Shown here piece after piece: positions 2,706 through 63,500 of a DNA stretch of 64,000 nt. The stretch lies in contig JBOHNU010000002.1 of assembly GCA_050730855.1 (NCBI GenBank), forward strand, positions 23,820-87,819, in the 5' to 3' direction. Source of the stretch: Candidatus Saccharimonadales bacterium (lineage in GTDB: Bacteria; Patescibacteriota; Saccharimonadia; Saccharimonadales; UBA4665). Both the position numbers and the translations under genes were made by a program. The number at the start of each line of letters is the position of its first letter. The first letter of the stretch is position 1. The notes beneath the pieces were generated by a model. It saw nothing but the letters and a program-made list of their open reading frames with translations, was not told the DNA's origin and searched no databases.

Positions 2706-4033
2706 TATTTGGCTCCTTTTAACAGGTCGATGGTAAGCGCGGCGGTCCAGCTAAAGTTGGGCGCGCCAAGCGGCTGGCCGGTTACCGGGTTGAAGTATTC
2801 GTAAAAGCCGTGTTGGTCGGCCAGCTCCAGTGTCGCTTCGGCGAGTGCTTCGGCGTGCTCTTTGTAGCCGTAACGCTTTAAACCGTCGATTATCAGCCAG
2901 TTAGTGTTAAACCACGTTGGCCCCTGCCAGTAGCGTATTTGGTTAAACCACGGGGAGTTAAGCGGCACGCTTGGCACCGGATGAGCGGGGCCGAAGCCGT
3001 GCTCGTTTTCTAGCATCTTAACAATTAGTTTGGCGCGCTCTTTGCTGATACATCCCGCGTACAGCGGCAGCAGCGCGGCGATGCTCGGCTCTTTGAGCAG
3101 CCGGTGCGTCACAAAATCGCGCGAGTAATACATTTCGGTGTAGGGATCCCACAATTCCTCTAGTTTTTTGCGAGAGAGTTTGATTTTTTGCAGCAGCTCC
3201 TTGGGCATCTCGGCACGCAGCGTTTTGGCGATTTCCAGCAGGTGCTCGTTGGCGCGGATAAAAATACAGTTGAAGGCCAGGTCTTCGACGGCAAACAGCG
3301 AGCGGTTGAGGATGCGGTGGATGTTGTACTCCTTGCGGCGCAAGCGGCGCTGGGCGTCGTACAGCGCCATGGCGTCGATATTGGTCGGACGCTGTGCGGC
3401 CGGAACGTAGCGAGTATCGGTGCGGAATAAGCTTAGCAGCGATGCAAGGCGTGTGGCGCGTAAAAATCGGATCCACCACGGCAACAGGTGGTTGGCCATT
3501 TCGTCCATCCAGGGCGGTGTGTTGTCTAGGCCGGTTTCCCAGGGGTGGATTTGCAGTACCAGACTTTCGCCGTGTGGGTCGCGTTCGCTATACAGCCACA
3601 GGTGGTAATCGAGCAATCCGGGCCAAACCTGGCGGTACCAGCTGCGGCGCTCCACCGTGCTCAGCTTTTGGCCGATCCGCACGATTGCCTCGGCCAGCAT
3701 CGGCGGTTGCGTAATGCCGCTGGTCAGTACATCCTCCGGCGAGTAGGGGCTAACCCAACTGCGCCACACCCCCGTATGGCGGCGCTCCTTTTTGCCGGGC
3801 GTCATGATCATATGCGGCACCATGCCGTTAGACCACTGGCCGCGGAACAGGCTGAGAACTTCCAGCTTAGCGCGCTCAATGTCGTAGTGCCGTTGACCGA
3901 TGGCCGTAAAACAGCTATCCCACAGCCACTGGTGTTGGTAAAGCCCCTTGGCCGGGATGGTATACACGCCGCGGTCGTTACGATCCAGAACTTCTTTGGC
4001 ACGTTCGAACAAGGCGGCATTGGAGTTGCTCAT
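2705..4033 (-). CDS. (alpha/alpha)6-barrel glycoside hydrolase, GH63 / mannosyl- or glucosylglycerate hydrolase-like
   Basis: 442 aa. N-terminal YQHQWLWDSCF and later PWETGLDN and W.GP.W.N.NW motifs resemble the MGH1/GH63-like family. Overlaps the downstream gene by 1 nt. Confidence 0.7.
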   Translation of the reverse strand: MSNSNAALFERAKEVLDRNDRGVYTIPAKGLYQHQWLWDSCFTAIGQRHYDIERAKLEVLSLFRGQWSNGMVPHMIMTPGKKERRHTGVWRSWVSPYSPEDVLTSGITQPPMLAEAIVRIGQKLSTVERRSWYRQVWPGLLDYHLWLYSERDPHGESLVLQIHPWETGLDNTPPWMDEMANHLLPWWIRFLRATRLASLLSLFRTDTRYVPAAQRPTNIDAMALYDAQRRLRRKEYNIHRILNRSLFAVEDLAFNCIFIRANEHLLEIAKTLRAEMPKELLQKIKLSRKKLEELWDPYTEMYYSRDFVTHRLLKEPSIAALLPLYAGCISKERAKLIVKMLENEHGFGPAHPVPSVPLNSPWFNQIRYWQGPTWFNTNWLIIDGLKRYGYKEHAEALAEATLELADQHGFYEYFNPVTGQPLGAPNFSWTAALTIDLLKGAK

Positions 4034-4089
4034 GCTTTTAGTATATAGGATTTCTGAACTGGCGAGGCGCTACTTTGGAAGTTTGAGCG

Positions 4090-4126
4090 GCACCCCCGTA
4101 GCCTTGGCCGCCAAGGCTACGGGTGC
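4090..4126. other. strong stem-loop in the pheS / glycosidase divergent intergenic region
   Basis: gcacccccgtagccttgg ccg ccaaggctacgggtgc forms a stem of about 16 bp with a 2-nt bulge and a 3-nt loop. Neither flanking gene ends here, so it is not positioned as a terminator. Confidence 0.6.
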
Positions 4127-4341: not shown

Positions 4342-5397
4342 ATGGACTATCAGAATGCTCGCATTGCTCAGGTTGCGTCGGTGCTGAAGACGCGGTTTGC
4401 CGAGCTGGAGGCCAAGGCCGACATTTTAAAAGCGGCCGAGTTAAAAGCGTTGTTTGCGGAAATCCCTACGTTGCCCAAGACGGAGCGCGCCGCGTTTGGC
4501 AAGGAGATTAATCAGTTGCGCCAGGAGTTGGAGCAGTTGGCAGCCGAGCACCAGGATCAGGCCGAGGCGTTGCCGCCGATTGATGTAACCGCGCCGTTTG
4601 ACGTAAACACGCCGTCCGGCAGGCGCCCAAGGCTGCTCACCGCCGACCAAGGCAGCAATCATCCGCTGCTGGCCGAAATCGAAACTATCAGCGACATCTT
4701 TCTTCGCATGGGCTTTTTAGTGGAGGAGTCGCGCCAGCTCGATGACGAATACCACATGTTCACCAGCCTAAACTTCCCCGAAGGCCACCCGGCGCGCGAC
4801 GATTACGACACCTTTATGACGGTAGAAAAAGACAAAAACGGCCACCCCTTTGTCGCGCCCGCCCACACCAGTACCATGCAAAACCGCCTGCTTAAAAAGT
4901 ACAAGGATAATCTGGACGAAGGCAAGCCCATCGCCGTTTTGGTGCCCGACCGCGTGTTTCGCAACGAAGACCTCGACGCCCGCCACGAGCACACGTTTTA
5001 CCAGTTCGAAGGTATGTACGTCGGAAAAGGTATACATGCCGGCCATTTGATGGCAACGCTTAAGACTTTCCTGCAAGAATATTTCAAACAAGAGATAGAG
5101 ATTAAAACGCAGCCGTTCTATTTCCCATTTACCGAGCCGTCGTTTGAGATAAACATATCCTGCCCGTTTTGCCAGAAAAAAGGCTGCAAGGTTTGTGGTC
5201 ATGTTGGCTGGATCGAGCTGCTCGGCTGCGGCATGATCCATCCGAATGTGTTCCAAATGGCCGGCATCGACCCCTCAGAATATACCGGCTATGCCTGGGG
5301 CGCCGGCATTGAGCGCTTGGTAATGATGAAATACAACATCGAAGACGTCCGCCATTTCGAAAGCGGCAAACTAGATTTCTTAAGGCAGTTCGCATGA
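4342..5397 (+). CDS. pheS: phenylalanine--tRNA ligase alpha subunit
   Basis: Class II aaRS PheS motifs (FPEGHPARD, RVFRNE, GAGIERLVM). Start moved to ATG 4342 (MDYQNARIAQ), which gives the usual length of about 351 aa. TATAAT lies at 4326-4331. Confidence 0.95.
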   Translation: MDYQNARIAQVASVLKTRFAELEAKADILKAAELKALFAEIPTLPKTERAAFGKEINQLRQELEQLAAEHQDQAEALPPIDVTAPFDVNTPSGRRPRLLTADQGSNHPLLAEIETISDIFLRMGFLVEESRQLDDEYHMFTSLNFPEGHPARDDYDTFMTVEKDKNGHPFVAPAHTSTMQNRLLKKYKDNLDEGKPIAVLVPDRVFRNEDLDARHEHTFYQFEGMYVGKGIHAGHLMATLKTFLQEYFKQEIEIKTQPFYFPFTEPSFEINISCPFCQKKGCKVCGHVGWIELLGCGMIHPNVFQMAGIDPSEYTGYAWGAGIERLVMMKYNIEDVRHFESGKLDFLRQFA

Positions 5398-6181: not shown

Positions 6182-6885
6182 AGAAAAAACCAATAATCTA
6201 CGCCTTCATCGACAGCCAAAACCTCAACTTGGCTATCCGCGACATGGGGTGGAAGCTGGATTTTGCCCGTTTTCGCGTGTATCTGCGCGAGAAATTGCAG
6301 GTAGAAAAAGCCTACCTTTTCCTTGGATACATCCCGGAGAATAAAGATATGTATTCCTTTTTGAGAAAGGCGGGTTTTGATTGCATTTTTCGTCCGACTT
6401 TGGCCTACAAAGACGGCACTACCAAAGGCAATTGTGATGCCGAGCTGGTTTTGCAGGCGATGATAGATTTTAATGTCTACGATCAGGCAGTGGTAGTAAC
6501 CGGCGATGGCGATTTTTACTGCCTGGCAAATCACCTGATTAAAAACAATAAATTAAAGACCCTGCTTGTGCCCAATCGCCATAAGTACTCGGCTTTGCTT
6601 AAATTAAAATTGTTCCGACCTTTTACGCGCGATATGAATGACCTACGTAAGAAATTGGAATATTTGAGCCCAAAAAAGAAGAACCCCCTCAAGGACGAAA
6701 CTTTGAAGGGGACATCTTCCGCTGGTGATACTAAGAGAATTTTAGCAAATGAACGACCACGAGTCAAGATAGGCAACAAAAAGACCAGGAGCAGCGGTCG
6801 GATCACATCCTTAGGTCAGCCTGGTCATGGTGATATAAAAAGTACAACAAAACGTTCGCCCAAGATTAAGAGGCCTAAATTATGA
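6178..6885 (+). CDS. NYN-domain (LabA-like) putative ribonuclease with Lys/Arg-rich C-terminal tail
   Basis: IDSQNL...NCDAELVLQAM...VVVTGDGDF is the NYN/LabA signature. The last 80 or so residues are highly basic. The gene is clearly AT-rich relative to its neighbours. Confidence 0.7.
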   Translation: MKKKPIIYAFIDSQNLNLAIRDMGWKLDFARFRVYLREKLQVEKAYLFLGYIPENKDMYSFLRKAGFDCIFRPTLAYKDGTTKGNCDAELVLQAMIDFNVYDQAVVVTGDGDFYCLANHLIKNNKLKTLLVPNRHKYSALLKLKLFRPFTRDMNDLRKKLEYLSPKKKNPLKDETLKGTSSAGDTKRILANERPRVKIGNKKTRSSGRITSLGQPGHGDIKSTTKRSPKIKRPKL

Positions 6886-9461
6886 AACTAAGTACCCAAG
6901 CAACTAAATACCTGAACGAACACTACGGATCGGCCGGCGATCCGGCGCCGGATGGCGTGGAAGAATTGGTTAAAACTATCGGCGCGCAATTGGCGGCGGT
7001 GGAAGAAGTTATTGATTTTGGCAAAAAATTCGAACAAGTCGTCATCGTAAAAGTTGTTTCCTGTGAAGACCATCCCAACGCTGACAAACTGCATGTTTGT
7101 AAAGTTGACGACGACGGTGTAGTTAAAGGCGTCGAGCGCGACGAGCAAGGCTTGGTGCAAGTGGTGTGCGGCGCGCCAAACGTCCGCTCTGGCATGTTGG
7201 CAGCCTGGATGCCGCCGGGCAGCACCGTGCCTAGCACCGTCGGCAAGCAAGACCCGCTTGTGCTCGAAGCGCGCGAGCTGCGTGGCGTGGTGAGCAACGG
7301 CATGATGGCCAGCCCCAGAGAGCTGACCTTGGGCGACGGCCATGAAGGAATCCTGGAAATCGACGAAGAACTCGGGTCGATCAAACCCGGCACGATGTTT
7401 GCCGACGCCTTTCATCTGCGCGGCGACAAAGTCATCGACATGGAAAACAAGATGTTCACGCACCGCCCGGACTGTTTTGGCTGGCTGGGGTTGGCGCGCG
7501 AGCTGGAGGGAATCGCTCACCGCCCGTACAAAAGCCCGGAATGGTACCGCATGAACCCTGAATTTCCAGATGTCGAAAGCGACGAACTGCCGCTGGAAAT
7601 TATCAACGAACTGCCCGAGCTGGTGCCGCGTTTTGTTGCGGTTGTCGTTAGGGATGTCGAAATCAAGCCAAGTCCGGTTTGGCTTCAAGTCGACCTAGCG
7701 CGTGCGGGTGTAAAATCCATCAACAATATCGTAGATTACTCCAATTTTTACATGCTGCTGACCGGCCAGCCGATTCACGCTTACGACTATGACAAAGTAA
7801 AAGCCTTCTCGGGAGGCGACACGGCAAAATTGACTATTCGCTACCCGCGTGAGGGCGAGACCATCAAACTATTAAACGGCAAAGAGATAACGCCTCGAAA
7901 AGAGGCGATGATGGTTGTAGCCGGCGAAAATCACTTGGCTTGCGTGGGCGGTGCAATGGGCGGCAGCGATACTGAGGTTGGCGAGAATACAAAGAATATT
8001 ATTATCGAGGCGGCGAACTGGGATATGTACTCGATGCGGCGCACGGCCATGCACCACGGTATTTTTACCGACGCCGTGACTCGGTTTACCAAGGGTCAAA
8101 GCCCGCTGCAAAATCTGGCGACCGTGGCCAAAATTGTGGATCAAATTCGCAAATACGCCGGCGGCAAAGTGGCCAGCAAACTCATCGACATCAACCACGT
8201 GCCGCCCGAGGCTATGGCGCGCGGCAACATCCATGCGCCGGTCGCCGTAACCGCGCAGTTTATCAATGAACGCCTGGGCTGGAAGCTGACCGCCGACGCC
8301 ATGGCGCTGCTACTACGCAACGTGGAGTTTCGCGTAGAAATAAACGGCGACGAGTTGGCAGTAACCGCGCCGTTTTGGCGCACCGACATCGCCATTGCCG
8401 AAGACCTGGTGGAGGAAGTCGGACGGCTGTACGGCTACGACCATTTGCCGCTGAAGCTTCCCATGCGCGACCTTGCGCCCGCGGCCAGAAATTCGCAGCT
8501 CGAAACAAAGCGCCGCATCCGCGAGCGGTTGGCTCAGGCCGGCGCCAACGAGGTGCTCAGCTACAGCTTTGTACACGGCAATTTGCTGGATAAAGCCGGC
8601 CAAAGCCGCGAGCTGGCTTTCCGGCTTTCCAATGCGCTCAGCCCTGACCTGCAGTATTTCCGTCTCAGCCTAACGCCAAACTTGCTGGAGAAAGTGCACC
8701 TCAATGTTAAAGCCGGCTACGGCCAGTTTGCGCTATTTGAGCTGGGCAAAGTCCATGCCAAAGGTGTAGTGGACGACGAGCAACTGCCGCGTGAGCTGCC
8801 GCGCGTCGCCCTGGTGCTGGCCGCCGACGACAAAGCGGCCAAGGCCGAGTACATCGGTGCGCCGTACTACCAAGCGCGCAAATACCTGATGGACTTGCTT
8901 GAATTGTTTGGCTTGGCAGGCGAGTTGGCATTTGTGCCGCTCGGCGCCGCTTCGTTTGGCGAGCGCGCGGCAATCGAGCAAATGGCCAAGCCTTTCGAGC
9001 CTAATCGTTCCGCGGCCATCATGCGCGGCGATTTGGTAGTCGGCGTGGTTGGCGAGTACCGCTCCGCTGTCATCAAGGCGCTAAAGTTGCCGGCCTTCAC
9101 CGCCGGGTTCGAGCTGTTTTTATCGGCCTTTAAAAACGACGGCGACCCGGCCTACCTCCGGTTGCCGCGCTTCCCCAATATAGAGCAAGACATTTGCCTG
9201 CGTGTGCCGGCCGGTACCCCGTACCAGGAAGTGTTCGATTTTGTCTGGTCGCATCTCGACCAACACCGCCCCGACGCCACCTACCACACCCTCGGCCCTG
9301 TGGATATCTACCAGCGCGAAGGGGACGCCGAGCACAAGCAAGTCACCCTGCGCCTTAGCCTGGCCAGCTACGAGCGCACGCTTACCGACCAAGAAGTAAA
9401 TGCGCTGCTGGACGGAGTAGCCGCAGCGGCAAAAACGGCTCTACGCGCCGAGCGTGTATAG
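6882..9461 (+). CDS. pheT: phenylalanine--tRNA ligase beta subunit
   Basis: 859 aa with an N-terminal tRNA-binding (OB) domain, B3/4 and B5 regions, and a C-terminal anticodon-binding-like domain. ATGA overlap with the NYN gene. Confidence 0.95.
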   Translation: MKLSTQATKYLNEHYGSAGDPAPDGVEELVKTIGAQLAAVEEVIDFGKKFEQVVIVKVVSCEDHPNADKLHVCKVDDDGVVKGVERDEQGLVQVVCGAPNVRSGMLAAWMPPGSTVPSTVGKQDPLVLEARELRGVVSNGMMASPRELTLGDGHEGILEIDEELGSIKPGTMFADAFHLRGDKVIDMENKMFTHRPDCFGWLGLARELEGIAHRPYKSPEWYRMNPEFPDVESDELPLEIINELPELVPRFVAVVVRDVEIKPSPVWLQVDLARAGVKSINNIVDYSNFYMLLTGQPIHAYDYDKVKAFSGGDTAKLTIRYPREGETIKLLNGKEITPRKEAMMVVAGENHLACVGGAMGGSDTEVGENTKNIIIEAANWDMYSMRRTAMHHGIFTDAVTRFTKGQSPLQNLATVAKIVDQIRKYAGGKVASKLIDINHVPPEAMARGNIHAPVAVTAQFINERLGWKLTADAMALLLRNVEFRVEINGDELAVTAPFWRTDIAIAEDLVEEVGRLYGYDHLPLKLPMRDLAPAARNSQLETKRRIRERLAQAGANEVLSYSFVHGNLLDKAGQSRELAFRLSNALSPDLQYFRLSLTPNLLEKVHLNVKAGYGQFALFELGKVHAKGVVDDEQLPRELPRVALVLAADDKAAKAEYIGAPYYQARKYLMDLLELFGLAGELAFVPLGAASFGERAAIEQMAKPFEPNRSAAIMRGDLVVGVVGEYRSAVIKALKLPAFTAGFELFLSAFKNDGDPAYLRLPRFPNIEQDICLRVPAGTPYQEVFDFVWSHLDQHRPDATYHTLGPVDIYQREGDAEHKQVTLRLSLASYERTLTDQEVNALLDGVAAAAKTALRAERV

Positions 9462-18081: not shown

Positions 18082-19146
18082 ATGAAAACGCGAGTAGTAA
18101 TTAATGGATTTGGGCGTATCGGGCGTTCGGCGTTTAAGATTGCATTTGAGAGGAGCGACCTGGAAATCGTCGCCATCAACGACCTTGCCGATACTAAAAC
18201 TCTTGCGCATTTGCTCAAACACGACAGCAACTACGGCGTCTATAGCCAGGAAGTAAACTTTGACGAGCAAAACATTATTGTCGCCAGCCAGAAAATCCGC
18301 GTTTACGCCGAGAAAGACCCGGCCGCCCTGCCTTGGAAAGACCTGAGCGTCGATGTAGTCATAGAATCAACAGGTCTTTTTACCGATCCCGAAAAAGCCC
18401 AGGCGCACATTAACGCGGGGGCTAAGAAAGTGATCATCAGCGCGCCCGCCAAGGGCGACAGCGCCGACACAATCGTGCTGGGTGTAAACGAAGACAAACT
18501 TGAGACGGCGACTGATGTGATTAGCAACGCCAGCTGCACCACCAACTGCATTACGCCGGTGGCGGCAATCATTGAGGCCAACTTCGGTATAGAAAAAGCC
18601 ATGATGACCACCGTCCACAGCTACACCGCCAGCCAACGTTTGCAGGACGCTCCAGCTAAAGATCTGCGCGAGGCGAGGAGCGCAGCCGAGAACATCGTAC
18701 CCACCACCACCGGCGCCAGTATTGCCGCGGCCAGGGCAATGCCGTCGCTCAAAGACCGCTTCGGCGGCATGAGTATCCGCGTGCCGACCCCCGTGGTAAG
18801 CCTTAGCGACTTTGTTATAATCACCAAACGCAAGGTCACGGTCGAGGAAGTCAACGAGGCCTTTAAAAAAGCCGCCGCAGAGCCGTACTACCAGGGCATT
18901 CTAGCCGTCACCGAGGAAGAATTAGTAAGCAGCGACTTCATCGGTAACAGCCACTCCGCCATCGTCGATCTTAATTTAACAGCGGTCATCGACGGCAACA
19001 TGCTCAAGGTCGTCGCTTGGTACGACAACGAATGGGGATACAGTAACCGCCTGGTCGAAATTGTGGCCGACACAGGCGCAATTTTGCACAAGGGCGGCGA
19101 CAACACGCCGCAAATCCAGGAGGTGGCCGTAAACGGGCAGGTTTGA
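18082..19146 (+). CDS. gap: glyceraldehyde-3-phosphate dehydrogenase
   Basis: INGFGRIGR and SNASCTTNC active site. Start trimmed to ATG 18082, which follows GGAGG. Confidence 0.95.
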   Translation: MKTRVVINGFGRIGRSAFKIAFERSDLEIVAINDLADTKTLAHLLKHDSNYGVYSQEVNFDEQNIIVASQKIRVYAEKDPAALPWKDLSVDVVIESTGLFTDPEKAQAHINAGAKKVIISAPAKGDSADTIVLGVNEDKLETATDVISNASCTTNCITPVAAIIEANFGIEKAMMTTVHSYTASQRLQDAPAKDLREARSAAENIVPTTTGASIAAARAMPSLKDRFGGMSIRVPTPVVSLSDFVIITKRKVTVEEVNEAFKKAAAEPYYQGILAVTEEELVSSDFIGNSHSAIVDLNLTAVIDGNMLKVVAWYDNEWGYSNRLVEIVADTGAILHKGGDNTPQIQEVAVNGQV

Positions 19147-19147
19147 G

Positions 19148-19600
19148 ATGGGTTCTAAGATTTTTATCGGCGCTGACCACAACGGCTTTGACATGAAGGC
19201 TTTTATAGCCGAGGAGCTAGCCCGGCTCGGCTACGAAGTTACTGACGAAGGCGACCAAGCCCGCAACCCCGACGACGACTTTCCGCAGTTTTCCGAGCAA
19301 GTAGTTACCGGCATGAAGGCGACGGGCGACCAAGAGGCGCGCGGCATCCTTATCTGCGGCAGCGGCCAGGGAATGTGCATTGCCGCCAACCGCTTTAAGG
19401 GCATCCGCGCCGCGCTGGTGTGGAACGAGCACGAAGCCCGCGCCGCCCGCAACGACGACGACAGCAATATTTTGTGCCTACCCGCCCGCTCCATTAGCAA
19501 CAAACAAGCACTGGGTATCGCGCAAACTTGGCTGCGCACGCCATTTGCCGCCGCCCCGCGCTTTAAGCGACGTATAAAACAAATCGACGAATTGGGCTAG
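19148..19600 (+). CDS. rpiB: ribose-5-phosphate isomerase B
   Basis: IFIGADHNGF and ICGSGQGMCIAANR are the RpiB/LacAB signature. Confidence 0.9.
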   Translation: MGSKIFIGADHNGFDMKAFIAEELARLGYEVTDEGDQARNPDDDFPQFSEQVVTGMKATGDQEARGILICGSGQGMCIAANRFKGIRAALVWNEHEARAARNDDDSNILCLPARSISNKQALGIAQTWLRTPFAAAPRFKRRIKQIDELG

Positions 19601-40621: not shown

Positions 40622-40732
40622 GCCTGACCCCCCATACACTTTTTCCGGCACCTCGGAAGCGCCGAATGTGCTACACTTTGTAGCGCATTCGGTGACCCGC
40701 ACGTGTCCGGAAAAGTGCATGGGGGGTCAGGC
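40622..40732 (+). repeat. family-1 hairpin element, copy B (full form)
   Basis: Outer arms gcctgaccccccatacactttttccgg and ccggaaaagtgcatggggggtcaggc. Core GGCACCTCGG (40647-40656) and GACCCGCACGTGTCC (40694-40708). Apical 14-bp hairpin at 40662-40692. Starts 3 nt after the dnaE stop. Confidence 0.85.
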
Positions 40733-40740
40733 AACGACAT

Positions 40741-41748
40741 CTAGTGGATAGAGCCTGCTGTTCGCGTAAGTACAAAACCGACCACTCCCAGAAGTACCAG
40801 GGCAACATCCAGGAATTTATGTTTTAGGATAAACCGTTCGCCGCGCAGCAAAGCTCGATGCCAGACCAAGCTGTGGCGTAGGAAGACAATTGCGATTGCA
40901 ACTGTAGCCATTATGGTCACAACCAAGATTGTCCAGGGAGCCGCGGCCGCTGTGAGTAGCTGAATGCGCGCGACAGTTTGGCTGGCTGGTGCCATTTCTG
41001 AACTGTCGGCGACTACGATGTCTGGTGTTGGGGTTGGTTCTGACGGAGCTGGTTCTTCGGCTGGCGGTGCTTGTTCGGCCACTGGTGCGGGCTTTGGCGC
41101 TGGCTGCGAGTTTTTGGCCGGAGCGGCTGGCGCCGGGGCGCTGGCCGCGGCAACCTTTGGCGTGCCGTACATGGCTACAACCACAGTTTGCGGGCCGGTA
41201 TCTTGGTAGTTTTCGACGTTGGCAATCCCAAAGCCAACCTCTGCAAACTCACCGTTTAGTATGTTGGCGCGATGACCGGGGCTGTTCATCCAGGCAGTAA
41301 TTGTAGCGCTGCTGTCATCAAACCCGTAGGCCAAGTTTTCGCCGGCAGCGGTGTAGTCGTAGCCGGCACTGGCAAAGAACACCCACGGCGGGTTGCCTTC
41401 CGGAGTGTTGTGCGACCAATAATTGCGCGCGGCCATGTCGTTTGCCTTGGCTTGCGCGGCTTGGTTCAGCTTGCTGTTTGCGGCCAGAGCCTGCAGCCCG
41501 CCGCTCGACCGCTGACTGTTGGTGTCCGAAACCAGGCTGCTAACAGACATGTTAGTGGCATAGCCCAGAATAGTCTGCTGCACCACCCCCCAAAAGCCAT
41601 TGACCAGCAGACCCAGCCCAACAATAATCCCTAGCGGCAAATACGGCCAATACGGCTTGGAATAGTCGTTCGACTTCTTGTGGTGCCGCCCGTGTCGGCG
41701 CTTGTGGTGGATGGACGAAGGCCGTTTTGTTTTTGATACTAGAACCAT
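40741..41748 (-). CDS. CAP/SCP (YkwD-like) domain protein with N- and C-terminal TM segments and Pro/Ala-rich linker
   Basis: NYWSHNTPEG, GENLAYG and WMNSPGHRANIL are CAP-domain motifs. Start taken at ATG 41748 (MVLVSKTKRP), because the track start (TTG 41784) lies inside repeat D. Confidence 0.75.
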   Translation of the reverse strand: MVLVSKTKRPSSIHHKRRHGRHHKKSNDYSKPYWPYLPLGIIVGLGLLVNGFWGVVQQTILGYATNMSVSSLVSDTNSQRSSGGLQALAANSKLNQAAQAKANDMAARNYWSHNTPEGNPPWVFFASAGYDYTAAGENLAYGFDDSSATITAWMNSPGHRANILNGEFAEVGFGIANVENYQDTGPQTVVVAMYGTPKVAAASAPAPAAPAKNSQPAPKPAPVAEQAPPAEEPAPSEPTPTPDIVVADSSEMAPASQTVARIQLLTAAAAPWTILVVTIMATVAIAIVFLRHSLVWHRALLRGERFILKHKFLDVALVLLGVVGFVLTRTAGSIH

Positions 41749-41771
41749 CTTGATTTTTACTATAGCACAAA

Positions 41772-41932
41772 GAACCCATCTCAAACCTCCCCGCCGCTAC
41801 AAAACTATCTGGCGGAACCAGCTGTCAGTTTTGTTCGTCGGCGTAACGATAGTTACGCCTTCTCACAAGAACTAACAACTGGCACTCACCGGATAATTTT
41901 TCGCTATGACGGGGGAGGTTTGAGATGGGTTC
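41772..41932 (-). repeat. family-2 element, copy D (161 nt, 21-nt terminal inverted repeats)
   Basis: gaacccatctcaaacctcccc (41772-41792) pairs perfectly with ggggaggtttgagatgggttc (41912-41932). The 25-nt core at 41866-41890 is the exact reverse complement of 51763-51787. 8-bp apical hairpin at 41840-41859. Confidence 0.85.
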
Positions 41933-41954
41933 GTAGTGCTTTTGCTAAATATCA

Positions 41955-42062
41955 GACCCGCCCCACATCAACTCCCCAGGACACGTGCGGGTCACAAAAT
42001 GTGTTCTTATATAACACATTTTGTGCTTCCGAGGTGCCTAGGGAGTTGATGTGGGGCGGGTC
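41955..42062 (-). repeat. family-1 hairpin element, copy C (full form, inverted orientation)
   Basis: Perfect 22-bp outer stem (41955-41976 against 42041-42062). On the plus strand the core reads GGACACGTGCGGGTC (41979-41993) and CCGAGGTGCC (42029-42038). Perfect 12-bp apical hairpin at 41994-42024. Confidence 0.85.
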
Positions 42063-49162: not shown

Positions 49163-51727
49163 CTACAAGAAGTACTGCTTAACCGCGGCAACGTCGCGCT
49201 GCAGCCAAGCCACGCGGTTCTCGATTTCTTCTATACCCAGTGTGATGCTGCGCTGCAAGGCGGGCAGTTTTTTGAGCGGCTCGAAGAAGGTGCGGTATTC
49301 GTCTAGCAACTGAGCGGTGTTAAAGGCGTTCGCCACGTAGCGCGGGAAGTAGTCGAAGCTGTTGTCGCTTGCGAATGTTTTTTCTATCCAATCCCAATGC
49401 TCGCGCAGCCAATCCCACGCCAGTTGGCGTGTGTCGCGGTTGCGCAGCAGGTACGCCAGCCAGCGGTCGACGTCGTGCTGCCGAACTTTTTTACCATCCT
49501 TTAACCGGCCTAGCAAGGTTTTTGCCTGGGCTGGGTTTTTTGTGGCGGTCAGCGCGTCCATAATATCGAGCTTTAGCGCGGTGTCGGTGGTGTTTTCGTC
49601 CAGATCTAACAGGTAGTCAAATGCGCCGCTGGCTTGCTGGCGGACGGCGGCGCCCAAGATTACGCTGCGCAGTTCGGACGTTACGGCCGCCGAGTCTTTT
49701 TTGTACTCGGCGAATAACTTAAGCGCCTCGGCAACAATTGCCGGATGCTTAGCGTACACGCCAAGGCTGATAATTAGCGCGCGCAGCTTGGTGTCTTCCG
49801 ACGATTCGCCGGGCTTTTCGCGCCAGCCCAGCCGCTTGTGCTGCGCGCCGACAAGCTGCCGCACAAAGGCGCGCATCGGCTCCTCCAGACTAGGGTCGAC
49901 ATCTATAAAGCGACGCAAGTCCGACAGCGTGAGCGCAATTATGTTCCACACCGGCTCTTCGTCTTCTTGCTTGTAGTGGTCGAGCAATTGCAGCGTCGCA
50001 CTGGTGGTTTGCTTGCCGGCGCGGGCAAGCATGGCGCTGTCGTTTAGCAGCGCCAGCCGTTCGGCCGGGTTCAGCCGTTTTTGAGCCGCTTGCTGGGCGA
50101 TTGCCTCGGCGTGCTCCGGGTTTACATAATGCACCAGGTAGTGGCCGGTCGCGCCCTGGTTGAGCCGCACCCAGCGGCTGTCGGGCAGCTCGGTCTGAAA
50201 GTGGTCTGCCTCAAGCAGCGCCGGGACACTCAGCGAATCCGCCAAAAGCGGCACCGGCCAGCGGCGTTCGGGGTCGGCCTTGGCTGGATCCATTAAAAAG
50301 TGAGTTTGCGCGATCGACAGTGACTGGCCATTCTGAGTAACTTCGATAACCGGGTAGCCGCTGCGCTCCAGCCAGGGCGTCATGATGTGGGCCACATCAC
50401 TGCCGTTGCTGAGTGCTTGCCACAAGTCGTCGCCGGTGGTGTTACCGTAGGCGTGTTTATCGAAGTACCTTTTTAGGCCTTTGCGGAACTCCTCTTGGCC
50501 CAGGTGCTGCACCAGCATATTGATCAGCCGGCCGCCCTTGGCGTATACAATGGATGGGTCGAAGATGCTGCCGATTTCGGCCGGATGGCGCACATCGGTT
50601 TTGATCGCCTGGACGCCGGCAATGCTGTCGCGCCGCAGCGCGGCCAATCCATCGGCGGCGATGTAGGTGTTCCAGATGCGCCAGTGCGGATACAGCGCGT
50701 CCTCTGCCACAAAGGCCATGACGTTGGCAAAACTTTCGTTTAGCCACAAGTCGTCCCACCAGCGCATGGTAACCAAATTGCCGAACCACTGGTGCGACAG
50801 TTCGTGCAGGATAACTTCGGCCGTGATTTCTTTGCCGCCTTGGGTCGCGGTGTCCGGGTCTGCCAGAAATACAGCCTCGCGGTAGGTAATGAGTCCCCAG
50901 TTTTCCATGGCGCCCGATGAAAAATCCGGTATGGCCACGTGGTCGCACTTGGGCAGCGGATAAGGAGTGTCGAAGTATTCCTCAAAAAAGTCCAGGCCGC
51001 GGGCGGCCACCTCCAGTGCGAAGTCCAGTGCCTCGGGGCGGTGTGCCTTGGTCGCCCACACTCTAACGTCTACGCCGTTCTTTGATTTCGTCTCCTTGCT
51101 TTGCAAATCGCCAAACACAAACGCCAGCAGGTAGGTCGGCATCCGCGGGGTTGTTTCGAAGAGCGTATGCAGTTTATCGCCCTTTGTAGTTTGGGTTTTT
51201 GGGGGCATGTTGCCTATAACCGCCTGGCTGGCGGGCGAGATAAGGCTGAGTGCGAACGTGGCTTTGGCTTCCGGTTCGTCGATACAAGGAAAGGCCTGGC
51301 GGGCAAAATGGCTTTCGAACTGCGTGGAGACTACCCGCTTTTGCTCGCCGCCGGCGGTGTAGTCCGAGTAATACGCACCCTGCATGCCGGCGCTGATTTT
51401 GCTGGCAAACTCCATTTCTACGGTGTAGCTCCCGGGGTACAGCATTTGCGCGGTGTGCAGGCGCAGCTCGTGCAGCGTGCGGTGGTGGTTAATGCGCGAA
51501 ACGGTTATCTCTTGGTCGCCCTTTTTGTCGTGGCGGGTAATTTTGGCGCCCAGCACCTTAACGCCGTTCTGGTGGAAGGTTAGCCGCTGCGACGGCCTCC
51601 CGGTCTTTTGGCCGGAAACTACAACCGTTCCGGTGATCTCGAGGGTTTCGGGGTTTGGCTCCAGGGATAGCTCGTAATGCTTGGGCGCAAAGCTGGCAAA
51701 AAGTCGGCGTACACGTTTAGAACCCAC
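49163..51727 (-). CDS. pepN: aminopeptidase N (M1 family)
   Basis: GAMENWG exopeptidase motif and HELSHQWFGNLVTMRWWDDLWLNESFA (HExxH-18-E). The GTG start at 51727-51725 and its GGAG lie inside the terminal repeat of element E. Confidence 0.9.
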   Translation of the reverse strand: MGSKRVRRLFASFAPKHYELSLEPNPETLEITGTVVVSGQKTGRPSQRLTFHQNGVKVLGAKITRHDKKGDQEITVSRINHHRTLHELRLHTAQMLYPGSYTVEMEFASKISAGMQGAYYSDYTAGGEQKRVVSTQFESHFARQAFPCIDEPEAKATFALSLISPASQAVIGNMPPKTQTTKGDKLHTLFETTPRMPTYLLAFVFGDLQSKETKSKNGVDVRVWATKAHRPEALDFALEVAARGLDFFEEYFDTPYPLPKCDHVAIPDFSSGAMENWGLITYREAVFLADPDTATQGGKEITAEVILHELSHQWFGNLVTMRWWDDLWLNESFANVMAFVAEDALYPHWRIWNTYIAADGLAALRRDSIAGVQAIKTDVRHPAEIGSIFDPSIVYAKGGRLINMLVQHLGQEEFRKGLKRYFDKHAYGNTTGDDLWQALSNGSDVAHIMTPWLERSGYPVIEVTQNGQSLSIAQTHFLMDPAKADPERRWPVPLLADSLSVPALLEADHFQTELPDSRWVRLNQGATGHYLVHYVNPEHAEAIAQQAAQKRLNPAERLALLNDSAMLARAGKQTTSATLQLLDHYKQEDEEPVWNIIALTLSDLRRFIDVDPSLEEPMRAFVRQLVGAQHKRLGWREKPGESSEDTKLRALIISLGVYAKHPAIVAEALKLFAEYKKDSAAVTSELRSVILGAAVRQQASGAFDYLLDLDENTTDTALKLDIMDALTATKNPAQAKTLLGRLKDGKKVRQHDVDRWLAYLLRNRDTRQLAWDWLREHWDWIEKTFASDNSFDYFPRYVANAFNTAQLLDEYRTFFEPLKKLPALQRSITLGIEEIENRVAWLQRDVAAVKQYFL

Positions 51728-51882
51728 TTCAAATCTCCACTCTGTTAAGAGAAGGCCATGCAGGTGAGTGCCAGTTGTTAGTTCTTGGGAGGAAGTGTAT
51801 CTGTAGATACACTGAAGAGCAAAACTGGCAACTGGTGCAGCCAGAATGGTCTGAGGCTGGAGGGGAGGTTTGAGGTGGGTTC
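51720..51882 (+). repeat. family-2 element, copy E (163 nt)
   Basis: Terminal repeats gaacccacttcaaatctccac and gggaggtttgaggtgggttc. 25-nt core ggtgagtgccagttgttagttcttg at 51763-51787. 8-bp apical hairpin agtgtatc/gatacact at 51794-51813. Confidence 0.85.
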
Positions 51883-51909
51883 TTACTCATCTGACAATTC
51901 TACACGTTG

Positions 51910-51938
51910 TTGACCATGTACGTCCACCCTGCTACAAT
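51910..51938 (+). promoter_or_regulatory. sigma70-like promoter candidate for nusA
   Basis: TTGACC (51910-51915), 17-nt spacer, TACAAT (51933-51938). Confidence 0.4.
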
Positions 51939-51948
51939 AAGGGTATTG

Positions 51949-51973
51949 GTCGGCCAGCGCGGTCGGCTTTTTT
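51949..51973 (+). terminator. terminator-like hairpin plus T6 inside the putative nusA leader (possible attenuator)
   Basis: gtcggcc agcgc ggtcggc forms a 7-bp stem including two G-T pairs, followed by tttttt (51968-51973). It lies between the predicted -10 box and the nusA ATG at 52001. Confidence 0.25.
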
Positions 51974-52000
51974 CATGCAAGTAGAAAGGAACCATACAAC

Positions 52001-62154: not shown

Positions 62155-62231
62155 TCAAGATGATTACTCGAATTATATCAAATTTTTGGCTTGTAAAGTC
62201 CAAAATTCGGCGAATACGGTATACTGCTAGC

Positions 62232-63500
62232 ATGAGTAAACACGCGGAAAGAATGTCATTGTCGGAAGAACTAGCTTGGCGGGGATTTGTAAACCAAACT
62301 ACTTACGCCGATTTGAAAGAGCTTGATAAAGGCCGGCTGACCTTTTACCAAGGGTTTGACGCCTCCGCGCCGTCGCAGCAGATCGGCAATTTGGCGTTTA
62401 TGATGATGGCGCGCGTGTTTATGCGCCATGGGCATCGGGCGGTTATTTTGGCTGGCGGTGCCACCAGTCTCATCGGCGACCCCGGCGGCAAGGACGTCGA
62501 GCGCACCCTGCAAGGCGAAAAAACAATTGCCGCCAACGTCAAGAACGCCGAAAGCCAACTAAAGAGGGTTTTTAGTGGCTATCAGTTTAAGCTGGTAAAC
62601 AACCTCGACTGGACTAAACGCCTTAATGTTATCGACTTTCTGCGCGACATCGGCAAACACTTTAGCATGACAACGCTGGTGCAGCGCGACTACATAGCCA
62701 GGCGTATCGGCAATGAGAGCAGCGGCATCAGCTATGCCGAGTTCAGCTACACTTTGCTGCAAGGCATGGACTACCTGCATCTGTATGACGTGCACGGCGT
62801 GACACTGCAGCTGGGCGGCTCCGACCAGTGGGGGAACTGCTTGTCGGGCGTGGAACTGGTGCGCAAGGCTCGCGGCGCAGAGGTACATGCGGTTACCACG
62901 CCGCTGGTTATAAATAAAACAACCGGCAAAAAGTTTGGCAAAAGCGAGGACGGCGCGGTTTGGCTCGACCCGAAAATGACGTCGCCAACCCAGTTTTACC
63001 AGTTTTGGATAAACGCCGACGACCAAGGAGTCGAGGATTACCTGAAGATTTTTACGGATATGTCAAAGCCCGAGATTAGCGAAATAATGGCCAGTCACCA
63101 AGAGAATCGCAAGACTCGCCTGGCGCAAACAGCGCTGGCCGAGGCGATTACGCGATTGTTACACGGCGCAGTAACAACAGAGGTGGCGCGCGAGATCACC
63201 AATGTTCTTGCCGGCAAAGTTTTGGTTGGCGACGCCAGCCGTCAAGTGATCGCGCAAATGCGGCGCGAGGTAGCGCACGCACAGGCAACCCCGGGCGAGC
63301 CTCTTGCCGACGTGGTGGTGCGCACCGGCCTGGCCGCCTCCAAAACCGAGGCGCGGCGGCTAGTTACCGACAATGCCATCACCATAAACTATCAGAAAGC
63401 CGCCAAGGACACGCTGAACGAAACCGACTTTTCCGCCGGGCGGCTGCTACTGCGCAAAGGCAAGTCGTTTAAAGATTCGGCGCTGGTGGAGCTGGCATAG
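62232..63500 (+). CDS. tyrS: tyrosine--tRNA ligase
   Basis: Class I HIGH-type (SQQIGNL) and KFGKS (KMSKS-type) motifs, and a C-terminal S4 domain. Start trimmed to ATG 62232, 6 nt after TATACT (62220-62225). Confidence 0.95.
   Translation: MSKHAERMSLSEELAWRGFVNQTTYADLKELDKGRLTFYQGFDASAPSQQIGNLAFMMMARVFMRHGHRAVILAGGATSLIGDPGGKDVERTLQGEKTIAANVKNAESQLKRVFSGYQFKLVNNLDWTKRLNVIDFLRDIGKHFSMTTLVQRDYIARRIGNESSGISYAEFSYTLLQGMDYLHLYDVHGVTLQLGGSDQWGNCLSGVELVRKARGAEVHAVTTPLVINKTTGKKFGKSEDGAVWLDPKMTSPTQFYQFWINADDQGVEDYLKIFTDMSKPEISEIMASHQENRKTRLAQTALAEAITRLLHGAVTTEVAREITNVLAGKVLVGDASRQVIAQMRREVAHAQATPGEPLADVVVRTGLAASKTEARRLVTDNAITINYQKAAKDTLNETDFSAGRLLLRKGKSFKDSALVELA

Follow-up and report, generated by a model that had tools for sequence, protein, structure and literature searches.

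A palindromic mobile element in codon 3 of pepN from a Saccharimonadales bacterium carries stop-restart signals that may keep the interrupted gene translated

In a 64,000-nucleotide (nt) stretch of a Candidatus Saccharimonadales bacterium genome (assembly GCA_050730855.1, contig JBOHNU010000002.1, positions 23,820 to 87,819; hereafter the window), a 163-nt palindromic element, designated element E, lies at the start of pepN, which encodes an M1 aminopeptidase. Comparison with related genomes shows element E to be an insertion that splits codon 3 of pepN, with TAA duplicated at its two ends. We propose, with a probability of about 0.55, that pepN is still translated by termination and reinitiation at the arm of this element. 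Element E is a case of a mobile element apparently tolerated in the first codons of a conserved gene of a small, gene-dense genome (94% coding in the window); ribosomes probably read across it and restart where it ends.

Read in the pepN orientation, the junctions run GTGTAGAATTGTCAG ATG AGT AA, element E, TAA ACG TGT. Removal of the element together with one TAA gives ATG AGT AAA CGT GTA, that is MSKRVRRLFASFAPKHYELS (MSKRV), in agreement with the start of P0002 (MSKRVRRLFASF), the closest of the 120 PepN relatives listed, which come from Saccharimonadales and Candidatus Saccharibacteria assemblies at identities from 78% downwards. In three relatives (L001, L002 and L003), nusA and pepN are divergent and 108-111 nt apart, and in the window 110 nt separate nusA from the old pepN ATG. 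Alignment of these three loci revealed a conserved GTGTAGAAT-N6-ATGAGTAAACG, with the -10 box TAGAAT kept ahead of the ATG. The window spacer is conserved up to ATGAGTAA, after which come element E and then TAAACG, while all three relatives carry GATGAGTAAACG, the exact empty site of element E.

A previous sequence-only reading of this DNA had held that the left end of the element provides the only available start of pepN. Indeed, GTG at 51727 is the only in-frame start and no other precedes the conserved N-terminal region, as ATG, GTG and TTG are all absent back to an upstream in-frame stop (TGA 51889-51887, within the old start A-TGA-GT), and the open reading frame (ORF) at 49163-51727 (-) from this GTG translates to MGSKRVRRLFASFAPKHYELSL, giving PepN the N-terminus MGSKRVRRLFASF. 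The arm does contribute the Shine-Dalgarno (SD) sequence and the start codon, and the present ORF takes its first 8 nt from it. However, the element does not merely sit upstream of a gene without a start of its own: it is inserted in codon 3 with duplication of TAA, and the native ATG and a promoter-like signal persist upstream of it. No element-less orthologue starting with MGSKR was found among the 120 listed proteins, of which 57 begin with MSK and 21 with MKR. Because pepN orthologues start without MGSKR, the objection that the repeat copied the gene start finds no footing at this locus. The only other MGS start among these relatives, that of P0014 (annotated MGSMST; L023, 730-760), is a gene-caller artefact and was rejected as an independent insertion, as it has no element and its called ATG lies inside the -10 box (TAGAATG); the true start is probably the next ATG AGT (MSTKVRRLY).

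The 19-nt arm GAACCCAYYTCAAAYCTCC has five matches in the window against 0.04 expected from shuffled sequences: two at the ends of element E, two at the ends of a second copy, element D, and one solo copy (Table 1). The octamer RTGGGTTC occurs five times in the window, each time at an arm end. As the sequence-only reading had it, each end read outward is an SD sequence, a spacer and a start codon: GGAGG-TTTGAG-ATG-GGTTC at both ends of element D, GGAG-ATTTGAA-GTG-GGTTC at the pepN side of element E and GGAGG-TTTGAG-GTG-GGTTC at its far side. In every case GGAG(G) is followed after 6-7 nt by ATG or GTG and then by GGTTC, and the TTTGA of the spacer contains a TGA stop, so that the order in the arm module is a GGAG(G) ribosome-binding site, TTTGA, one base, ATG/GTG and GGTTC.

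Table 1. Positions of pepN, of the two elements and of their signals in the window
Feature	Position	Strand	Remarks
Solo fifth arm copy	19137-19155	-	1 mismatch
Solo arm remnant TTGAGATGGGTTCT	19143..19156	+	gap-rpiB junction; 14 nt
Element D	41772..41932	+	161 nt; perfect 21-nt arms, near-perfect hairpin; intergenic
Arm matches, ends of element D	41772-41790; 41914-41932	+; -	
pepN, M1 aminopeptidase	49163..51727	-	854 aa, intact; GAMEN at residue 272, HELSH-18-E at residue 308
TAA target duplication, downstream copy	51717..51719	- (TTA on +)	
Element E	51720..51882	- (forward orientation, by nhmmer)	163-nt MITE-like imperfect palindrome in pepN codon 3
Arm matches, ends of element E	51720-51738; 51864-51882	+; -	
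Present pepN start, GTG	51725..51727	-	inside arm
Stop of upstream ORF, TGA	51729..51731	-	in pepN-proximal arm, 1 nt ahead of GTG
Upstream ORF made by the insertion	51729..51890	-	53 codons + stop, MSKNPPQTSPP...NRVEI*; spans entire element
GGAG, SD-like tetramer	51735..51738	-	in arm, within 53-codon ORF, 7 nt before GTG
TAA target duplication, upstream copy	51883..51885	- (TTA on +)	last base of old codon 2 and first two of codon 3
Ancestral pepN start, ATG	51888..51890	-	from alignment to L001-L003 and in-silico deletion of the element; now opens 53-codon ORF
Promoter-like site TGGACG-18 nt-TAGAAT	51897..51926	-	promoter scan; -10 box ends 6 nt before old ATG

Based on this layout, transcription from the native pepN promoter would give an mRNA of the leaderless type, beginning at or beside the old AUG. 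Ribosomes would initiate at this AUG and translate the 53-codon ORF across the whole element, thereby melting the hairpin that otherwise buries the SD and GUG of the arm. They would then terminate at the UGA in the far arm and restart at the GUG 1 nt downstream, aided by the GGAG 7 nt upstream of it. The product would be PepN with MGSKRV in place of MSKRV, i.e. with one extra glycine. We infer the transcription start, the translation of the upstream ORF, the reinitiation and the synthesis of PepN from the DNA sequence. Reinitiation works at overlaps or at gaps of a few nt, and a native pair with a +1-nt gap was efficient in reporter work (PMC10666635, PMC6728339). The stop/start gap is +1 nt at pepN (TGA-A-GTG), at two further copies (L004 and L016) and at the gap-rpiB junction of the window, and is an ATGA overlap at another copy (L020). 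In coupled gene pairs, too, no more than a few nt separate the stop from the next start and the SD lies inside the upstream ORF, a geometry that leads to tight coupling (PMC6728339, PMC10666635). Those pairs are native operon genes, whereas here the upstream ORF and the junction come from a mobile element.

The -10 box and its spacing from the old pepN ATG are conserved in all five loci examined (the window, L001, L002, L003 and L023), and none of the five has an SD between the two. Because the -10 box lies so close before the old ATG and no SD is present there, the pepN mRNA is suggested to be of the leaderless type. A crude start-signal census of 53 long ORFs in the window gave a -10-like hexamer 5-8 nt before the candidate start in 15 (control at mid-ORF positions, 0) and an SD-like motif in 15 (control, 7). 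No terminator-like site was found by the scan on the pepN strand, and no promoter-like site, including an outward promoter in the arms, was found inside element D or E by the consensus scan. A similar arrangement was noted at 62220-62234, where TATACT, 6 nt and then ATGAGTAAAC open an ORF that we take to be tyrosyl-tRNA-synthetase-like from a reading of its N-terminus only; many window genes look leaderless.

Copies of the element were sought in other genomes. The arm scan covered a collection holding one genome per species, with the window's own genome outside it, and gave eight matches, only one of which, in a Saccharibacteria metagenome-assembled genome (MAG; L004), is real. The other seven were rejected, being single arms in unrelated phyla at about the number estimated from pattern length and collection size. 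In L004, a 160-nt element (1260-1419) lies between AAGGAGGTAAATGACAAC and AAAACGAG (AAAACG...). The old ATG there has its own SD and opens a 52-codon ORF through the element, with the TGA 1 nt before the GTG of a 428-aa family-2 glycosyltransferase (GT2) gene, whose product begins MGSKRVAVER. A whole-element scan of metagenomes found nine loci, corresponding to five distinct sites plus extra copies in L012, and in the metagenome contigs the good copies number six, each at a site of its own, with two further matches by nhmmer that are weak.

Two of the metagenome copies also lie at gene starts. In L016, the element is inside an apparent ATGA stop/start overlap between a MazG-like gene and a NUDIX gene. 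Its left junction, CTAT|GAACCC, retains the TGA stop and an ATG, which opens a 51-codon ORF running to TGA-A-GTG, and the GTG GGT TCA ATG that follows is in frame with the NUDIX gene. In L020, a P-loop kinase gene has the element within its ATG. The arm GTG keeps the frame of this gene and precedes a regenerated ATG by three codons, and the read-through ORF of 57 codons ends on ATGA at native codon 3. The remaining copies (L012a, L012b, L018, L013 and window element D) are intergenic. At L013 (3567-3600), the arm ATG opens a 10-codon ORF (MGSNTKRWLC). A single base separates its TAG from the preceding ATG of a Na+/H+ exchanger gene (ATGCTAG), possibly another stop/restart arrangement, at an upstream insertion.

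The 7.7-kb contig L012 has element matches at 2366-2506, 3948-4114, 5190-5352 and 6779-6942, two of them good and two weak (26 and 12 bits by nhmmer), and the match at 2366-2506 has different ends. The two good copies, in inverted orientation to each other, flank a 426-aa ORF. This ORF was considered as a transposase and rejected, as its product has no Pfam or NCBIfam match and looks membrane-anchored. No autonomous insertion sequence (IS) with the same ends was found in the window or the other loci examined, and a scan of viral contigs for the arm returned three chance single-arm matches only. Ten read-through peptides encoded by the elements were joined end to end and searched against a protein collection, with no match at E <= 1; such a search could reveal no further copies, because ORFs this short are absent from that collection. 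L018 (4793-5938) and L004 (5284-6195) share tilS at 42% identity, and an adjacent region read as ftsH also matches. This shared region suggests that the metagenome copies, too, may come from Patescibacteria-like genomes.

At the gap-rpiB junction of the window, the gap stop TGA (19144-19146) and the rpiB ATG (19148-19150) both lie within GGCAGGTTTGAGATGGGTTCTAAG, with the geometry TGA-G-ATG. The 14-nt remnant adds two codons, Gly-Ser, to rpiB and so gives an MGSK N-terminus, a start seen in none of the 119 other RpiB relatives listed, most of which begin with MK or MSK. Relatives have either AAACGGGTAGGTGGCG GTG AAA with a 6-nt spacer (L022) or a GTGA overlap (L021) at this junction. Compared with L022, the window has the 14 nt TTGAGATGGGTTCT, identical to the arm end plus one base, in place of GGCGGTG, while ACGGGNAGGT, just upstream of the remnant, is ancestral sequence and not part of the element. 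We infer that an element was once inserted at the rpiB start and was then mostly deleted, possibly between the native AGGT and the arm AGGT, leaving the arm's stop-1 nt-start as a permanent gap-rpiB junction. A solo arm-like sequence without an element, part of it (ACGGGNAGGT) ancestral, could also be read the other way round, with MGS-type starts being ancestral and the arm a copy of a gene start. We give this history almost no credence: neither pepN nor rpiB orthologues have MGS, the empty sites show clean insertion with duplication, and at rpiB the 14 nt by which the window departs from the orthologues match the arm end exactly.

Judged from its sequence, the interrupted pepN looks functional. 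In relative-rate tests with three sister sequences and three outgroups, pepN of the window had 44-66 unique changes compared to 50-73 in the sisters, with chi-square < 3.84 in every test, indicating that its lineage is not accelerated. Since element E is more decayed than element D, with arms differing at three positions and a hairpin about half as stable (-59 vs -102 kcal/mol), the insertion is probably not very recent. A silenced pepN, i.e. a recent knock-out whose intact ORF has not yet decayed, would be in keeping with the poor initiation site (a GTG with a 4-nt SD within a helix) and with the confinement of the insertion to this lineage among the pepN relatives listed. We nevertheless hold silencing to be improbable, as the decay of element E argues for an old insertion, and all 854 codons, the catalytic motifs and a normal substitution rate are retained. 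Moreover, the same layout is kept at the glycosyltransferase gene of another genome, and an arm remnant has been fixed at rpiB.

Copies of the element are 160-164 nt long and have no transposase gene, their longest frame being at most 54 codons. The terminal inverted repeats (TIRs) comprise arms of 19-21 nt, perfect in element D and matching at 18/21 positions in element E. The orientation is defined (100-154 bits forward versus 26-55 reverse by nhmmer), and the whole-length hairpin is kept by compensatory change, with double changes at 16 of 40 pairs, including arm positions 8-10 on both ends. Target duplications are perfect in three cases (TAA at element E, TAA at L013 and ATA at L012b), and five other sites have A/T-only triplets with one mismatch each, always at an outer position; the duplication may therefore be 2 nt plus one extra base rather than 3 nt. 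Dispersed copies occur in the window (two and one remnant), in one Saccharibacteria MAG and, for the rest, in metagenome contigs. By these sequence features, the element is a non-autonomous TIR transposable element resembling MITEs (transposable elements of the miniature inverted-repeat type). Rfam 15 gave no match in the window at the gathering score, and permissive thresholds gave chance hairpin matches only (E = 0.1-0.6).

The open frame is a property of the family as well. The read-through frame, with codons counted from element base 2, is stop-free in 12 of 18 element strands compared to 2.7 from shuffles of the interior, whereas the other two frames are stop-free in 3 and 5 of the 18, with about 2.8 expected. 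Given a 3-nt duplication and an in-frame arm start, the old reading frame falls automatically in this open frame. In each of the five gene-start cases, the arm start has the frame of the gene (chance, (1/3)^5 = 0.004), and a start codon, ATG or GTG, is present in 19/19 arms. Placement at gene starts is greatly enriched when compared with all A/T triplets (P about 1e-5). The two insertions in codon 3 (E and L004) have hairpins of -59 and -51 kcal/mol versus -90 to -102 for the seven other copies, with the arms still pairing, and this weakening could come from age or from selection for translatability.

In the mRNA sense, element E has a predicted fold of -59 to -62 kcal/mol, in which the arms cover GGAG and GUG. 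The 18 paired positions out of 21 that the sequence-only reading had counted in the arm-arm helix were recovered. Its further suggestion, that this helix masks initiation, holds in part: a helix covering the SD and GUG exists in the predicted fold, but ribosomes on the upstream ORF would open it, and coupling fits better than an on/off mask. In the model of that reading, ribosomes would bind the arm GGAG-N7-GTG directly, with the upstream ORF irrelevant and the helix a mask that lowers or regulates PepN synthesis. The SD spacing is canonical, SD-led starts occur in this genome (the 15 of 53 ORFs versus 7 in the control), and the arm starts of L016 and L020, upstream of an intact native ATG, could act alone. 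Such independent initiation deserves real weight but is, in our view, unlikely, as the predicted fold pairs up both the SD and the GTG, and neither the stop placed exactly 1 nt before the start nor the open read-through frame (4/4 gene-start insertions, 12/18 strands) is explained by it.

Two further routes to PepN were considered. Hairpins of the Neisseria Correia elements are reported to be cut by a double-strand-specific RNase, and a similar cut here would place the 5' end of the pepN mRNA in the 3' arm and free the SD and GTG. A long helix kept by compensatory changes (16/40 pairs double) in the mRNA sense would suit such processing. However, the helix of element E is interrupted and short (8+5+4 arm pairs) and hence a poor substrate, and the stop-1 nt-start geometry and the open frame are given no role, making this route very improbable. 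Alternatively, a +1 frameshift at AUU-UGA-A (GUU-UGA-G in the consensus arm) could fuse the 53-codon ORF to PepN in the manner of prfB. A +1 shift at the UGA leads into the pepN frame, which is itself open across the whole element (forward frame 2 of E), and the SD-like GGAG adjoins a U-rich codon followed by UGA. The prfB site, CUU-UGA-C, requires slippage on CUU-U and has its SD placed 3 nt ahead of the shift codon. Here, the shift codon is AUU or GUU, and GGAG(G) overlaps it or lies at most 1 nt away instead of 3 nt; moreover, the fusion would put about 52 unrelated residues on the PepN N-terminus. As the geometry does not fit, a prfB-like site was rejected, and we see hardly any chance of a frameshift.

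Several points weigh against termination-reinitiation as the route by which pepN is expressed. For this organism, all of the evidence is drawn from sequence. The restart signals of element E are weaker versions of those in the family, GTG instead of ATG and GGAG instead of GGAGG. On a leaderless mRNA, only 9 nt would separate the AUG from the hairpin, which, once folded, could hinder ribosome loading. At L013 and element D, which lie 12-23 nt upstream of a start, the arm starts are out of frame. Furthermore, TGA is present in 15 of 19 arms and replaced by TGG in the other 4, and the length is 1 mod 3, which lets the read-through frame meet the arm TGA, in 5 of 9 copies, with 4 of 9 out of frame; the arm module is therefore not universal. 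Only about ten copies are independent and three of them (L012a, L016 and L018) are close relatives, so their shared ancestry inflates the frame statistics. Finally, compared with tolerable sites, i.e. intergenic sites plus starts, the enrichment at gene starts is marginal (P = 0.03-0.07). Strong targeting of gene starts was rejected on this ground, and active targeting need not be assumed because survival of rescued insertions suffices.

Among known systems, MITEAba12 of Acinetobacter is a mobile repeat that gives a neighbouring gene its start codon and first four residues, MQQS (PMC6382973). Like the present element, it is short, has TIRs and can supply a neighbour's start codon from its outward end; in contrast, no SD-stop-start module or read-through ORF is described for it, it has at least two stops in all six frames and a weak hairpin, and its sequence and host are unrelated (PMC6382973). 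The REP2 repeats of Neisseria and IR-A/IR-B of Borrelia contain a ribosome-binding site together with an ATG (PMC3184786). They are upstream cassettes with a promoter and no TIRs (PMC3184786), whereas the present element has TIRs, is a coding insertion at pepN and shows no promoter-like site in either window copy. The RPE of Rickettsia resembles element E in being a palindromic mobile element that survives inside a protein-coding gene, but it is translated in frame within the host protein (PMC10969869), while the 163 + 3 nt of element E shift the frame and the old frame runs into the arm TGA.

Correia (CREE/nemis), ERIC and RUP-type MITEs share with the present element a size of 100-170 bp, TIRs, a short A/T duplication and long RNA hairpins within transcripts of the host, as well as an influence on neighbouring-gene expression. 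The effects reported for them involve promoters and IHF sites as well as RNase processing and the stability of mRNA (PMC3184786); they are not known to include a restart of translation. It is by these effects, not by a comparison of arm sequences, that the present element is set apart from them. IS1, IS10 and ISAba1 drive flanking genes from outward promoters. There, too, the end of an element restores or drives a flanking gene, at the level of transcription and not, as proposed here, of translation. Neither 'start codon' nor 'ribosom' occurs in the main text of a review from 2024 on the functions of prokaryotic MITEs. A literature search pairing Saccharibacteria with MITEs found no paper; as far as the searched literature shows, this is the first MITE-like family described in Saccharibacteria. 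Start-codon donation by mobile elements is known, but the design of an SD and stop-restart module combined with an open read-through frame is new.

We tentatively raise the possibility, on balance doubtful, that the element family is adapted for translational transparency, having one stop-free frame per strand and an SD-stop-base-start in each arm. If so, the element can settle in start codons, first codons and operon stop/start overlaps, where any other insertion would be a null mutation, and it leaves behind MGS N-termini, new short ORFs and sometimes, as at gap-rpiB, fixed arm remnants that serve as gene junctions. If general, survival of an insertion in the first codons of a gene would open start codons and operon junctions to mobile DNA as a niche, and would be a source of N-terminal variation and new small ORFs. 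For annotation, gene callers give the MGS start but overlook both the upstream ORF and the old start, and the interruption would pass unflagged. With SD, stop, 1 nt and start packed into about 20 nt, the arm is also a small natural part and a candidate portable translational coupler.

Element D folds into a hairpin of -102 to -116 kcal/mol (z = -12.6). Downstream of it, at a distance of 23 nt, is the ATG (41748) of a CAP gene, assigned by a Pfam CAP match. As the sequence-only reading had noted, its outward ATG at 41779 opens a 75-codon ORF (41552-41779, -) out of frame with the CAP gene; this ORF is probably not a gene, though CAP translation might, as that reading suggested, be hampered by it. 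No recognisable target duplication was found at the flanks of element D. These flanks (41755-41771 and 41933-41949) themselves form an imperfect inverted repeat (AGCAC...GTGCT, 11/17 positions), and element D may therefore have landed inside the loop of an older small hairpin. A second hairpin-repeat family, of the GCCTGACCC...GGGTCAGGC type and with arms up to 96% complementary, occurs at 1760-1835, 40622-40732 and 41955-42062, and only 22 nt separate one of these copies from element D. At the second-family copy near 1765, a further assembly of this organism (L027) comes to an end, as if the repeat breaks assemblies.

On the other side of the pepN-nusA spacer, the nusA upstream region (51910-51976, +) has a promoter-like TTGACC-17-TACAAT and, after it, a terminator-like hairpin (51948-51968) with a T-run; the nusA ATG follows about 25 nt later. 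Three relatives keep this hairpin with changed loop and stem bases, and it may be a leader attenuator of the nusA operon.

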